DNA from: Desulfobacterales bacterium
Lineage (GTDB): Bacteria; Desulfobacterota; Desulfobacteria; Desulfobacterales; UBA5852
Assembly (NCBI GenBank): GCA_963674755.2
Contig: CAXXVS010000001.1
Span: 576,001-640,000 of the forward strand
Length of the DNA stretch: 64,000 bases
Direction: 5' to 3'
Shown here: positions 14,559 through 20,412 of the stretch, piece after piece
Numbering within the stretch: the stretch's first letter is position 1
How the letters are laid out: each line of letters opens with the position of its first letter
Notes under the pieces: generated by a model
What the model was told of the DNA's origin: nothing
What the model saw: the letters and a program-made list of their open reading frames with translations, nothing else
The model's database searches: none
Translations under genes and position numbers: made by a program

Positions 14559-14587
14559 TTGACAAACCGGGCGGCCTCGGCTATGGG
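14559..14587 (+). promoter_or_regulatory. Putative sigma70 promoter of the leader-iorAB operon
   Basis: Perfect TTGACA, 17-nt spacer, weak -10 TATGGG. Confidence 0.5.
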
Positions 14588-14610
14588 CAAATGACTTGAG
14601 AGGAATCGGG

Positions 14611-14658
14611 ATGCAAATGATCATGGGCTACGGCAACTGGTGGTGGCCGGCAGTTTGA
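14611..14658 (+). CDS. Trp-rich leader peptide MQMIMGYGNWWWPAV (trpL-like)
   Basis: GAGAGGA RBS; three consecutive TGG codons just before the stop; overlaps attenuator helix 1. Confidence 0.85.
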   Translation: MQMIMGYGNWWWPAV

Positions 14659-14751
14659 AGCGGCTCGCCACCAGACCCTACATCCTTTAAAGAACAGGGC
14701 TGTGAGCGGCTTCAGCGTGAGGCGTTGGAGAAGTTCATGGCTCTTTTTTTT
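14637..14751 (+). promoter_or_regulatory. Ribosome-mediated transcription attenuator (helices 1:2, 2:3, 3:4 plus U-tract)
   Basis: CTGGTGGTG pairs with CGCCACCAG; GCTCGC..CCCT pairs with AGGG..GTGAGC; terminator AGGGCTGTGAGC-CTTCAGCG / CGTTGGAG-GTTCATGGCTCT followed by T8. Confidence 0.82.
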
Positions 14752-14894
14752 GACGGCTTCATAAATCGCTCAAAATCGGCGCTGTGCGGCCTTCGGCCCC
14801 GCGCTAGCGGTATTCCTCGTCGCGGCGGCGTTCTGATGCACGCCGCTCTCCTCGGAATTCGCACGCCGTATCTTGAACGGTTTATGAAGCCGTC
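14752..14894. repeat. Palindromic intergenic element (GACGG...CCGTC subtype)
   Basis: GACGGCTTCATAAA...TTTATGAAGCCGTC terminal IR; central CGGCGTTCTGATGCACGCCG hairpin; aligns with 20629-20755. Confidence 0.85.
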
Positions 14895-15022
14895 GGAATA
14901 GTTACGCTCCTCGAAACTCATTCCTTGGAGGAGCACCACGGGTTCGTCCCCTTCTGCTATCACCCGGTTGGATTCGGTGGGACCGATCGCACGAAGAAAC
15001 TGGAACGAGGAAATTTCAAACG

Positions 15023-16831
15023 ATGCGCCGATTGATGTTGGGCAATGAAGCGATCGCCCGGGGACTGCTGGAAAACGGCTGCGCCATGGCCACCTCCTAC
15101 CCCGGCACGCCCGCTTCGGAAATCTTGGCTTCCCTGGCGGCCATGCGCACGGCCGAGCAGGTCGACATGCACGTGCAGTGGGCCGTCAACGAAAAGGTGG
15201 CCTTCGAAATCGCCTATGCCGGGGCCATGAGCGGTTTGCGCACGGCGGTCAGCATGAAGCAGGTGGGCCTCAACGTGGCCTCGGACCCCTTGATGAGCGC
15301 AGCCTACATGGGCACCAAGGGCGGGTTCGTGGTGATCAGCGCCGACGATCCCGGTCCCCACTCGTCCCAGACCGAGCAGGACAGCCGCATGATGGCCATG
15401 ATGGCCAAGATCCCGGTCCTGGATCCGGATTCCCCCCAACAGGCCAAAGCCATGGTGGCGCTGGCTTTCGATCTGTCGGAGGCCTTTGAGATCCCGGTCA
15501 TGGTGCGGCCCACCACCCGGGTATGCCACGCCCGCCAGGACATCGCCCTGGATGCCCTGACGCCCCTTGGTCGTCAGCCGGTATTCGAGCGCAATCCCGC
15601 CCGCTGGGCGGCCACGCCCAAGTTTCGGTACCATCTGCACGGGGAGCTGGAAGACAAGCTGGCCAAGATCGCGGCCTATGAGGCCACCGCTCCGGTTCAG
15701 CTCAACCCCCACGTCACCGGCCCCCAGGCCGTGGTCGCGGCCGGTGTGGCCCTGGCCCACACGATGGAAATCATGCGGGGGCTGGGGCTGTGGGATACTC
15801 TGCCCATCTACCAGGTGCGCCAGCCCTATCCCCTGCACACGGACTTCATCGCCCGGCTGGAAGACGCCCATGCCTCGCTCCTGGTGATCGAAGAGACCAC
15901 GGGCATGATCGAGATGCAGTTGGGGGACCGCCATCGGGTGGCCGGCAAACAAAGCGGGGCCGTGCCCCGGGTGGGTGAGCTGGCGCCGGAAGCCATCGAA
16001 GACATTTTATGCCGTTTCAGCGGACGATCCCGTACCGTCGCGCGGCCGCCGGCCGTGGCCGGCCGACGGCCGACCCTGTGTGCCGGATGCCCCCACCGGG
16101 CCAGTTTTTTTGCCATCAAGAAAGCGGCCCCCCGGGCCATCTACACGAGTGATATCGGCTGCTACACCCTGGGACTGAACCTGGGGGCCGTGGATACGGT
16201 GTTGTGCATGGGGGCCGCCATCAGCCAGGCGGCCGGCTTCTATCACGCGTTCAAGGACCAGGCCAAACCCCGGGACGTGGTGGCCACGATCGGGGATTCC
16301 ACCTTCTTCCATGCCGGTTTGCCGGCCCTGGTGGATGCGGTGGCCCATCGGGTCAAGATGGTGCTGGTCATCCTGGACAACCGTACCACGGCCATGACCG
16401 GCAACCAGCCCACTCCGGAAAGCGGGTGGGGGGCCTGCGGCGAACCGTTGCAGGCCGTCAACCTGGAACAATTGGTGCGCGGCTGCGGCGTCGACTTCGT
16501 GCGGGTGGCCGACCCCTACCGGACCGAGGCCCTGATCAAGGTTCTCAAGGAAGCCCTGGCCCATAGCCGGGAGACCGCAGCGCCGGCGGTGGTCATCTCC
16601 CGGGCCCCCTGTCTGATCGACAAACAGGCCACGCTCACCAAAAGCACGGGCGCGCCCCCTGTTGTAAGCGATGTGTGCGACGGCTGCGGATATTGCGTCC
16701 AGCAGTTCGAGTGCCCGGCCATCGTCATGGCCGAAGACGAATCCCATGTGACCATCGACTCCGTGCTGTGCAGCGGATGCGGTGTGTGCGCGCAGGTCTG
16801 CCCGAAGCATGCCATCCGAGGCGACGCTTAG
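15023..16831 (+). CDS. iorA: Indolepyruvate:ferredoxin oxidoreductase alpha subunit
   Basis: [64 protein letters not shown], two C-terminal 4Fe-4S motifs. Confidence 0.95.
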
Positions 16832-16879: not shown

Positions 16880-17434
16880 ATGACGGAAACGACGCGCCAG
16901 CAGGTGGTCATCAGTGGAGTGGGAGGCCAGGGGGTGCTGTTCGTTACACGCCTGCTGGCGGAAGCCGCCATTCGCAAAGGGTTGCCGGTCCTGACATCGG
17001 AAACCCATGGCATGGCCCAGCGGGGCGGTACGGTTATCTCCCACTTGAAGGTGGGCGATTTTACCAGCCCCCTGATCCGTAGCGGGCATGCCGATGTCCT
17101 ATTGGCCCTGAAGGCCGAAGGCGCCGCCCAGCACGGTCATTATCTGCATGACGGGGGATGGGCGCTGGTCAATGACCGTCACGGCAAAGAGGATACGGCA
17201 GGCGGTTGCTGGCAACGGCTGGATGCCGATCGCCTGGCGCAGGATAGCGGCAACCCGCGGGCCGTCAACCTGGTGGTCCTGGGCGGGGCGCTGGACCAAT
17301 CGGCGCCGTTGCCGCTGTTTTGCACCTTGAACGATATTCAGGCGGTTCTGGCAGCGCGCCTGGCCGCCAAACCGGATTTGTTGGAGATGTCCCGCAAGGC
17401 GCTGGCGGCAGGGTTGCAGGCGGTTGCCCCCTGA
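16880..17434 (+). CDS. iorB: Indolepyruvate:ferredoxin oxidoreductase beta subunit
   Basis: GVGGQG and SETHGMAQRGGTV. Confidence 0.92.
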   Translation: MTETTRQQVVISGVGGQGVLFVTRLLAEAAIRKGLPVLTSETHGMAQRGGTVISHLKVGDFTSPLIRSGHADVLLALKAEGAAQHGHYLHDGGWALVNDRHGKEDTAGGCWQRLDADRLAQDSGNPRAVNLVVLGGALDQSAPLPLFCTLNDIQAVLAARLAAKPDLLEMSRKALAAGLQAVAP

Positions 17435-17534: not shown

Positions 17535-18554
17535 ATGAGAAGAAAATCAGTTGCATGGACGACGCTGGGCCTGCTCGTTGGGGTGCTGAGCCTGCTTTTG
17601 ATGCCGGGGGCGGTCAGTGCCGGGACGATCACCTTGAGCTATGCCAATTTCCCGCCGGCCCCGACCTTTCCCTGTGTCCAGATGGAGCGCTGGAAGACCG
17701 AGGTGGAAAAGCGCACCAACGGGCAGGTGGCCATCAAGACCTATCCCGGCGGCACCCTGCTGGGCGCCAAGGAAATGATGGACGGCGTGATTGCCGGCCA
17801 GGCCGACATCGGCAACCTGTGCATGGCCTACCAGCCCGGCCGCTTCATCGTGACCAACGCCACCAGCCTGCCGCTGGGTATCCCCAACGCCCGTACGGGC
17901 AGCCTGGTTCTCTGGGCGCTTTATAACAAATACCACCCCAAGGCCTTTAGCCAAGTGAAGGTGCTCACCATGTTTACCACGGCACCGGCCAATATCATGT
18001 CGAAAACCCCCGTACGCAGTCTCGACGATATCAAAGGCCTGGATCTGCGCGCTTCCGGCGGGGCCGCCCAGATCCTGAAAGCCTGGGGCGCCAACCAGGT
18101 GGGCATGCCCATGTCGGCCACGCCGGAAGCCTTGCAGAAAGGTGTCGTACAGGGGCTTTTTTCCTCCCTGGAAGTCATGAAAGACCTCAAATTTGCTGAA
18201 ATTTGCCGCTATGTCACCATGACGGACACCGTCATCTACCCCTTTGCCGTGGTCATGAACATGGACCGCTGGCAGGCCCTGCCGCCGGATGTCCAGAAGG
18301 TGATGGACGACCTGGCCGAGGAACAGGCCGAATGGACCGGTGCTTACATGGATCAGCATGTGAAGGAAGCCATGGATTGGTCGGTCAAGGAATATAAGGT
18401 GGACGTCATCCAGCTGGACGCCAAGGCCAAGGCCGCCTGGGACCAGAAGCTGAAGTTCATCACGGACCAGTGGATGGCCGACGCCAAGGCCAAGGGGTTT
18501 CCCGCCGAAGCCATCGTGACCGACATCCGGAAGCTGACGGAACAATATCAATAG
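17535..18554 (+). CDS. dctP: TRAP transporter substrate-binding protein
   Basis: Signal peptide; EVEKRTNG..YPGGTL, DDIKGLDLR, EALQKGVVQG, WQALPPDVQ. Confidence 0.92.
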   Translation: MRRKSVAWTTLGLLVGVLSLLLMPGAVSAGTITLSYANFPPAPTFPCVQMERWKTEVEKRTNGQVAIKTYPGGTLLGAKEMMDGVIAGQADIGNLCMAYQPGRFIVTNATSLPLGIPNARTGSLVLWALYNKYHPKAFSQVKVLTMFTTAPANIMSKTPVRSLDDIKGLDLRASGGAAQILKAWGANQVGMPMSATPEALQKGVVQGLFSSLEVMKDLKFAEICRYVTMTDTVIYPFAVVMNMDRWQALPPDVQKVMDDLAEEQAEWTGAYMDQHVKEAMDWSVKEYKVDVIQLDAKAKAAWDQKLKFITDQWMADAKAKGFPAEAIVTDIRKLTEQYQ

Positions 18555-18619: not shown

Positions 18620-19111
18620 ATGGCAGTCCTGGAGCGCGTCACGCGTTTGCTGAACCGGCTGTTCGTTTTTTGCGGCGGCATGTTCCTGGTGGGCATGATC
18701 CTGCTCACCTGTGCCAATATCGCCTGCCGGGCCGTGTGGGAGCCGATTCGGGGCACGTTCGAACTGATGGGCTATTTCGGGGCCGTAGCCACCGCCGCGG
18801 CCCTGGCCTTTACCCAGATCAACCACGGCCATATCGCCGTCAATGTGTTGATCAACCACTTTTCCCCCAAGACCCGCCGATGCCTGAACGCCTTCAACAA
18901 CGCGACCTGCGCCCTTTTCTTCGCCGTGATCGCCTGGCAGATCGGATTGAAGGCTCATGGGTTCATGCAGACGGGTGAGGTGTCGGAAACCCTGCGGGTG
19001 ATTTTTTATCCCTTCACCTATATGGTGGCCGCCGGCTGCGGGGTGATCGCGCTGGTGTTTGTGGTGGATCTGCTCCGGCCGCTGCGTTCCGGCCCGGGAG
19101 ACCCGCCATGA
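18620..19111 (+). CDS. dctQ: TRAP transporter small permease
   Basis: Four TM helices, GHIAVN motif, position between dctP and dctM. Confidence 0.9.
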   Translation: MAVLERVTRLLNRLFVFCGGMFLVGMILLTCANIACRAVWEPIRGTFELMGYFGAVATAAALAFTQINHGHIAVNVLINHFSPKTRRCLNAFNNATCALFFAVIAWQIGLKAHGFMQTGEVSETLRVIFYPFTYMVAAGCGVIALVFVVDLLRPLRSGPGDPP

Positions 19112-20412
19112 GCGCGGCCGTCGTGGGACTTCTGGGCATCGCCGTTCTGCTGGCGGTGTTGTTCCTGCTGGGCATGCCGGTGGGTATCGCCATGGCCATG
19201 GTGGGCTTTGGCGGCTTCTGCTACCTCGTGTCCTTCAATGCGGGCCTCCACATGCTCAGTTCGGTCTTCTGGGACACCTTTTCCACCTACGGCCTGACCG
19301 TGATTCCCCTGTTTATTTTCATGGGGCAGGTGGCCTTTTATTCCGGCGTCAACGAAAAGCTTTACCGGGCGGCCTATAAATGGGTGGGGCATATCCGCGG
19401 CGGGATTGCCATGGCCACGGTGCTGGCCTGCTCCGCCTTTTCCGCCATATGCGGGTCCAATGCCGCCACGGCCGCCACCATGACCACGGTGGCCCTGCCC
19501 CAGATGCGCAAATACCACTATCACCCCAAGTTGAGCACCGGCGCCATTGCCTGCGGCTCTACCCTGGGGGTGGTGATTCCGCCCAGCGTGGTCCTGATCG
19601 TCATCGGGTTGTCTACCGAGCAGTCCATTGCCCGGCTCTTCTACGGCGGCATCGGTGCCGGGATGTTGCTGACCCTGACCCTGATGGCCACGGTGGTTGC
19701 GGTGTGCCGCCGGCATCCGGACTGGGGCCCCGTGGGCCCCCCCACCACCTGGGGGGAGCGCTGGCGGTCGCTCTACGGGGCGTTGGAGATGGTGGTATTG
19801 TTTCTGCTGGTGATGCTGGGCCTGTTCTTCGGCGTGTTCACGCCCACGGAGGCCGGTGCGGCCGGAAGCCTGCTGGCGCTTCTGATTGCCGGGGTCCAGG
19901 GCCGCCTGAGCTGGAAGGGGTTTCTGGCATCGGTTAGGGATACCCTGAAAATTTCCTGCATGGTGATCGTGATCGTGACGGGCGCCATGGTGTTTGGCCG
20001 GTTTTTAGCCGTCACCCGCATTCCCTTCGACATCGCCGACTGGGTGGTGGGGCTGCCGATTCCCAAGGTCGCGGTGATGGGGATTATCTTTCTGATCTAT
20101 ATCATCGGCGGGGCGGTTATGGATGCCCTGGCGCTGCTGCTGATCACCATCCCGATTTTCTTTCCGGTGGCCTCTGAACTGGGATATGACCCCATCTGGT
20201 TCGGGGTGACCATTACGGTGGTGACCACCCTGGGGGCGGTGACACCGCCCGTGGGGGCCACGACCTACGTCGTGGGAGGCATGGCCGGTGATATCCCCCT
20301 GGAGGATGTCTTCCGGGGGGTGGCCTATTTCCTGCCGGCCTATATCGTCTGCATCCTGATTTTGATGATGGTGCCGGAGATCGTTACGTTTATGCCGCAT
20401 CTTTTACGGTGA
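19108..20412 (+). CDS. dctM: TRAP transporter large permease
   Basis: IPLFIFMG, GSNAATAA, TLGVVIPPS, FTPTEAG, TPPVG. Confidence 0.93.
   Translation: MSAAVVGLLGIAVLLAVLFLLGMPVGIAMAMVGFGGFCYLVSFNAGLHMLSSVFWDTFSTYGLTVIPLFIFMGQVAFYSGVNEKLYRAAYKWVGHIRGGIAMATVLACSAFSAICGSNAATAATMTTVALPQMRKYHYHPKLSTGAIACGSTLGVVIPPSVVLIVIGLSTEQSIARLFYGGIGAGMLLTLTLMATVVAVCRRHPDWGPVGPPTTWGERWRSLYGALEMVVLFLLVMLGLFFGVFTPTEAGAAGSLLALLIAGVQGRLSWKGFLASVRDTLKISCMVIVIVTGAMVFGRFLAVTRIPFDIADWVVGLPIPKVAVMGIIFLIYIIGGAVMDALALLLITIPIFFPVASELGYDPIWFGVTITVVTTLGAVTPPVGATTYVVGGMAGDIPLEDVFRGVAYFLPAYIVCILILMMVPEIVTFMPHLLR

Follow-up and report, generated by a model that had tools for sequence, protein, structure and literature searches.

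A predicted tryptophan leader-peptide attenuator before an iorAB–TRAP operon in Desulfobacterales and its six-segment relatives

The window (the whole 64,000-nucleotide stretch of Desulfobacterales DNA that was analysed) contains an operon for an indolepyruvate:ferredoxin oxidoreductase (IOR) and a TRAP transporter, iorAB-dctPQM, which appears to be controlled by a ribosome-dependent tryptophan attenuator of the trpL type. Relying on folding models and comparative analysis, we propose with high confidence both the switch and its sign (i.e. on at low charged tRNA-Trp). It is probable that this switch serves the salvage of indole-3-acetate (IAA) to tryptophan by iorAB-dctPQM, with IOR working reductively, a direction judged from regulation and neighbouring genes. 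On balance we also lean towards a broader proposal, namely that Desulfobacterota possess a family of Trp attenuators with six segments, so far undescribed, marking a complete CO2-fixing auxin-to-tryptophan salvage regulon (TRAP or ABC importer, IAA-CoA ligase, reverse IOR and, for free indole, TrpB2), which would have collapsed here to four segments with a former relay helix as the terminator. A trpL-type attenuator before iorAB-TRAP had been predicted in an earlier sequence-only reading, and the modelled geometry, conservation, compensatory changes and related leaders support that prediction.

The leader lies downstream of a divergent NAD(P)HX repair gene and consists of the following elements:

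14559..14587, + strand: predicted sigma-70-type promoter, from sequence (TTGACA at 14559-64, 17 nt, TATGGG)
14600..14604, + strand: Shine-Dalgarno sequence GAGGA of the leader ORF
14611..14658, + strand: leader peptide ORF, MQMIMGYGNWWWPAV, with three UGG Trp codons at 14638-14646
14637..14674, + strand: helix 1:2, CTGGTGGTG (14637-45) paired with CGCCACCAG (14666-74), -24.3 kcal/mol
14656..14714, + strand: antiterminator 2:3, including the leader stop codon (14656-61 with 14709-14; 14663-68 with 14702-07)
14696..14751, + strand: helix 3:4 (12-bp outer stem, 9-bp inner stem) and U8 tract (14744-51), predicted intrinsic terminator

The promoter, ribosome-binding site and Trp leader ORF of the sequence-only reading are each found where it had placed them, as are its pairing of the Trp codons in helix 1:2 (14637-45 with 14666-74) and its two-part 3:4 stem (14696-14744) ending in T8. 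Its antiterminator is right in one arm: GCTCGC (14663-68) pairs with GTGAGC (14702-07) in the 2:3 core, at -17.6 kcal/mol. The other proposed arm, CCCT (14676-79) with AGGG (14696-99), is present but is not the conserved one; that second conserved arm, which had been overlooked, pairs UGAAGC (14656-61), holding the leader stop codon, with GCUUCA (14709-14). The -10 box TATGGG is weak, and a simple consensus scan for promoters and terminators listed neither the ior-leader promoter nor the predicted 3:4 terminator. Nevertheless, a script placed TTGAC(A/T), followed by TA 17-18 nt further on, upstream of 40 of 41 leaders; in the 41st it is visible by eye in the printed row.

The 202-nt leader region folds into helix 1:2 and a long two-part 3:4 hairpin reaching up to U8, with a z-score of -3.29 and an equally good fold in 1 of 200 shuffles. 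The whole 3:4 stem amounts to -29.6 kcal/mol, and 4 of the 12 outer-stem pairs are G-U. Across the leader, contigs from two sequencing runs show 0 and 6 differences; one RNA run (0.13 of words) gave contigs outside which the leader lies. Between the terminator and iorA, outside the switch, there is a further element:

14752..14898, no strand assigned: dispersed repeat, matched by BLAST at 12 other places in this genome (66-88% identical)

No comparable hit to this repeat was found in the loci of other genomes, and it is absent from a 94%-identical relative (L002).

We modelled the switch by blocking ribosome-covered bases and folding the growing transcript. With 9 nt of 3' cover, the modelled probability of the 2:3 core is 0.95-0.96 when the A site stands on each of the Trp codons, 0.58 on the Pro codon and 0 from the Ala codon to the stop. 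Tyr, Gly and Asn codons likewise fall inside the permissive window, and at 12 nt of cover a stall at the third Trp gives just 0.58. When no ribosome is present, 1:2 is ahead of 2:3 (0.65 versus 0.33). The mutually exclusive helices claimed earlier therefore behave as proposed when folded with and without ribosome occlusion: a stalled ribosome yields 2:3, and a ribosome at the stop codon loses it. This stalled-versus-stop contrast recurs in most of the relatives shown. In these models a stall frees segment 2 and a ribosome at the stop blocks it, as expected of a trpL-type element, and the short ORF, ribosome site and tandem control codons are conserved. At equilibrium a completed segment 4 gives the terminator the advantage over 2:3, also when the ribosome is stalled, and read-through would therefore need kinetic persistence of 2:3.

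A plausible sequence of events is that (i) with enough Trp, a ribosome at the stop codon would cover segment 2, 3:4 would form before U8 and transcription would end near 14750; (ii) in untranslated RNA, 1:2 would be favoured and 3:4 would follow; and (iii) a stall on UGG would hide segment 1 and leave segment 2 free, 2:3 would precede synthesis of segment 4 and the polymerase would continue.

The search for WW leaders upstream of iorA orthologues that the sequence-only reading had proposed finds such leaders at part of the loci. Across 61 related genomes, a WW or WxW leader stands shortly 5' of iorA in 15 of the 30 best IorA loci (own locus included), compared with 0 of 20 upstream regions in a paralogous IOR clade (∼40% identical); two WW matches (L038 and L061) that lie inside upstream genes were dropped. 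The three aligned codons encode Trp in 34, 36 and 37 of 41 distinct leaders. In a first alignment of 16 leaders, 8 of them from one genus and judged by a shuffle control that ignores kinship, helix 1:2 is paired in 88.9% of cells, with 14 of 500 shuffles as high and weak covariation; helix 2:3 is paired in 95.3%, with both-side changes at 4 of 12 pairs and 0 of 500 shuffles; and helix 3:4 is paired in 87.9%, with both-side changes at 7 of 19 pairs. A segment 3 column co-varies with its partners in both segment 2 and segment 4 (U-A to C-G and A-U to G-C; five sequences each), as is required of a two-state switch. Compensatory change, with kinship uncontrolled, hence keeps the mutually exclusive helices weakly for 1:2 and clearly for 2:3 and 3:4. 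Chance origin of the leader was rejected on the shuffle z-score, the paralogue control and this conservation.

Leader-bearing loci are scattered across the IorA tree (FastTree), which suggests an ancestral leader with repeated loss; this is a suggestion only because the deep nodes are weakly supported. Those iorA-locus relatives that carry names are Desulfobacterales records, and most iorA orthologues lack the leader: it is present at just 7 of 80 iorA loci of named genomes, and 6 of these 7 repeat loci already counted. Several leaders have decayed (L007, L008, L009, L019, L072, L069 and L048): their Trp codons are gone, and the promoter remains together with some portions of the hairpins; the first three belong to the same genus as the window. 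In five others (L149, L151, L165, L166 and L168) the stop codon is shifted downstream and the peptide extends over segment 2.

With a covariance model built from the leader, 76 of the 151 genomes searched in the order gave a hit at E 0.05 or better. The best 29 non-self matches stand before iorA (17, of which 7 are training sequences), trpB2 (6), a PaaK-like CoA ligase (4) and dctP (2). Twenty operons were read, and their gene orders are iorAB-ligase-dctP(QM) (6), trpB2-iorAB-ligase-dctPQM (1), iorAB-dctPQM (2), iorAB-ligase (1), trpB2-iorAB (1), ligase with an ABC or TRAP importer (4), trpB2 alone (3) and dctPQM alone (2). A second tier of 20 weaker matches (out of the next 25) precedes trpE (6), DAHP synthases (5), ADH-synthase-like genes (4), iorA (3) and unclear genes (2). 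The sequence-only reading had considered iorAB-TRAP an unusual target and had overlooked this wider regulon, which accounts for it. Across the phylum, a second model matched 43 of 151 genomes. The 29 of its loci that were read, some of which lack Trp leaders, comprise trpB2 (7), trpE (6), ADH synthase (5), DAHP synthase (3), unclear genes (3) and one each of trpD, iorA, ilvB, a LivK-like protein and an aminotransferase. Similar multi-hairpin leaders stand before ADH synthase, acetolactate synthase and aminotransferase genes of other Desulfobacterota (L172, L177, L219, L225 and L235).

The IorA clade without the leader often keeps a link to tryptophan, with trpB2-serA-iorA in 16 loci. A conserved palindrome, TGTATAC-N-GTATACA, flanked by outward TTGAC boxes, is present at 14 of these 16 loci, e.g. 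∼140 nt upstream of trpB2 in L034, L067, L071 and others, and upstream of iorA in L025; it also precedes other genes and was rejected as a Trp-specific element. At one locus a TrpR-like ORF (L020:1184-1486) stands directly 5' of iorA, scoring 46.5 bits against TIGR01321, under the cut-off of 67.25. At L188:2049-3795, iorA after trpB2 is split across several frames (frameshift or sequencing error). Several loci contain an ABC importer operon divergent from iorA with a fused LivF-PaaK protein (e.g. L039:2448-4637).

This genome holds de novo trp genes as well as trpB2, so that salvage would be an economy rather than a need. Trp leaders with hairpins and a U-tract also precede its trpE-G-D-C-F cluster (G000:C2:474583, minus strand) and a DAHP synthase gene (G000:C2:571425, plus strand). 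Phe/Tyr leaders precede an AroF/G-like DAHP synthase gene (G000:C3:567591, minus strand) and a paaK-ACT-livKHMGF operon (G000:C2:886087, plus strand), a parallel aryl-acid module. Leader codons thus track the amino acid, and the ior leader reads Trp. A loose genome-wide search for leaders returned 14 loci in 15 rows; the iorA and DAHP-synthase leaders were the sole convincing ones among them, and the leader before trpE was overlooked. Model R1 missed both the trpE and the DAHP-synthase leaders of this genome, which indicates that these are related in plan and not close in sequence. No Trp leader was found at the genome's second IOR (39% identical). Attenuation by the Bacillus TRAP protein (MtrB) and repression by TrpR are not supported, as neither an MtrB (PF02081) nor a TrpR (PF01371) match was found in the 97% complete genome.

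The operon downstream of the leader contains five genes:

15023..16831, + strand: iorA, IOR alpha subunit with ThDP and 4Fe-4S domains (TIGR03336, 653.5 bits; cut-off 650.9)
16880..17434, + strand: iorB, beta subunit (PF01558; best match NF004916 just under its cut-off, 216.7 bits against 227)
17535..18554, + strand: dctP, TRAP solute-binding protein resembling Dde_0634 and Desal_3247 in sequence and fold
18620..19111, + strand: dctQ, TRAP small membrane subunit (PF04290)
19108..20412, + strand: dctM, TRAP large membrane subunit (TIGR00786, above cut-off)

No solved structural relative of IorA was found at E 1e-10. IOR is usually annotated as an enzyme of amino-acid fermentation. For DctP, an alignment-based model (pLDDT 93.7) has as its nearest solved structures 4n6d (Desal_3247, 57% identical) and 4pgn/4pgp and 4nap (Dde_0634, 49% identical), with Z-scores of 43-45 that lie far above the next rows; the match to Dde_0634 has a Z-score of 43.3 and an rmsd of 1.9 Å over 309 residues. 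Structures ranking below these have phenylpropanoids and other aromatic acids as ligands. We take the 4PGN ligand to be indole-3-pyruvate and the D-amino acid of 4NAP to be D-Trp. Dde_0634 is reported to bind IAA (PMC9973260 and PMC9543091), and PMC9543091 also describes anaerobic IAA degraders with an IAA-binding protein; indole acids appear among TRAP ligands in a review (PMC5812351), and PMC10443332 mentions a D-amino acid in 4NAP (Dde_0634). By overall identity and fold, DctP is a candidate indole-acid-type importer protein, an identity of 49% being too low to fix its ligand.

Induction of IOR by Trp shortage, and a leader common to a CoA ligase, an indole-acid-type importer and TrpB2, are most simply explained if IOR makes Trp. 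The TRAP transporter would import an indole acid, which a PaaK-like ligase (encoded in the operon in relatives and unlinked here) would convert to indole-3-acetyl-CoA. IOR would then form indole-3-pyruvate from indole-3-acetyl-CoA, CO2 and reduced ferredoxin, and an aminotransferase may complete the candidate route to Trp. A reductive IOR that makes aromatic amino acids from aryl acids, IorA2B2, is described for Methanococcus maripaludis (PMC3462420 and PMC4162585). The present system would resemble it in that respect and differs in being bacterial, apparently Trp-specific, and equipped with a TRAP importer and an RNA switch, with the direction of IOR judged from regulation.

It is also conceivable, if unlikely, that the attenuator works as described on behalf of a substrate other than IAA, e.g. 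indole-3-pyruvate, indole-3-lactate or D-tryptophan, or on behalf of aryl acids at large with Trp as their proxy. The D-amino acid in 4NAP and the aromatic ligands of the next-nearest DctP structures point that way, as does the leader on dctPQM alone in 2 of the 20 operons; furthermore, the nearest ligase to the attenuated ones (55-60% identical; G000:C2:965778) is unlinked to the ior operon in this genome and no Trp leader was found at it. However, neither IOR nor a CoA ligase would be required for imported indole-3-pyruvate or D-Trp, and IOR activity would deplete indolepyruvate; the leader is nonetheless common to ligase and IOR in many relatives. A broad aryl-acid role fits poorly with the Phe/Tyr supply of this genome, which is served by a separate F/Y leader at another PaaK operon.

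Most relatives outside the genus of the window carry a six-segment form that the sequence-only reading overlooked, with an extra G-C hairpin (5:6) and a U-tract. In an alignment of 23 relatives (L148 and L162 of the 25 listed were left out as atypical, as were matches without a clear third hairpin), helix 5:6 is 95.0% paired and covarying, and helix 4:5 is 85.9% paired with a covariation score that none of 500 shuffles attained. Folds and pairing indicate a his-like relay, with 1:2, 3:4 and 5:6 in the off state and 2:3 and 4:5 in the on state. An evident 5:6 hairpin was found in 0 of the 8 leader-bearing members of the window's genus. In the absence of this final hairpin 3:4 itself would have to terminate, and we infer that the relay helix 3:4 became the terminator in this genus.

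Alternatively, the loss of 5:6 may have left a decaying relic whose G-U-rich 3:4 helix terminates poorly, with the operon largely constitutive. The separate terminating hairpin of most relatives outside the genus, the decayed leaders of L007, L008 and L009 within it, and the failure of the terminator scan to list 3:4 are consistent with such decay. All 8 leader-bearing genus members nevertheless have a run of U7-9 directly 3' of the 3:4 stem and keep the leader frame and the 2:3 helix, despite a spacer beyond that varies from 45 to 282 nt, and we give decay into a relic little chance.

TnaC is a leader that induces tryptophanase at excess Trp, where arrest at Pro-stop in free Trp relieves termination. 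The ior leader does not fit an arrest peptide of this type, as the leader peptide ends in Ala-Val-stop, Pro is the last residue in 5 of 41 leaders and arrest at the stop codon would favour the terminator. A catabolic operon for the oxidation of Trp or indole acids, induced in the TnaC manner, has the usual annotation of IOR and the existence of anaerobic IAA degraders in its favour but is hardly credible, since in the models a ribosome held at the stop codon eliminates 2:3 and promotes termination (the wrong sign), Pro precedes the stop in so few leaders, the same leader family stands before trpB2 and related leaders before trpE, trpD and DAHP synthase genes, and no match over the cut-off was found in the genome for NF009709 (PRK13238), presumably tryptophanase.

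The mechanism of the proposed salvage switch is a textbook one, and its iorAB-TRAP target is without a description in the literature searched. Like the E. coli trpL leader (Rfam Trp_leader), the ior leader has tandem Trp codons in segment 1, helices 1:2, 2:3 and 3:4, a U-tract and a predicted on state at low Trp. It differs from trpL in that its antiterminator includes the leader stop codon, its predicted terminator is long, two-part and G-U-rich, and its target is IOR and TRAP instead of trpE. Rfam gave no relevant match in the window up to E 5 (Trp_leader, T-box and riboswitches), and none at the gathering score in 7 related loci. The his leader of Salmonella and E. coli resembles the leaders of the relatives in having three off-state and two on-state helices; by contrast, the ior leader senses Trp and has no sequence match to it, and in the window's genus 5:6 is lacking and the U-tract follows 3:4. 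No description of an attenuator before iorAB was found in the literature searched, a coverage outside which most subscription journals lie; the supplement of PMC4833913 consists of genome lists, in which the term 'indolepyruvate' does not occur.

Classical attenuation is poorly catalogued outside Gammaproteobacteria, according to PMC3766115. The predicted leaders extend it to Desulfobacterota and show a natural simplification from six to four segments. A starvation switch on iorAB points opposite to the annotation of these genes for breakdown, i.e. towards a biosynthetic direction. The conversion of IAA and CO2 to Trp was reportedly observed in old rumen labelling work, and to our knowledge no genes are known for it; our analysis names candidate genes for this conversion in anaerobic bacteria. 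It also offers a physiological role for a TRAP binding protein that ligand screening alone had brought to light. The salvage reading suggests that sulfate-reducer relatives rebuild tryptophan from scavenged IAA and do not burn it, and that sulfate reducers in sediments may take up auxin as an amino-acid precursor.
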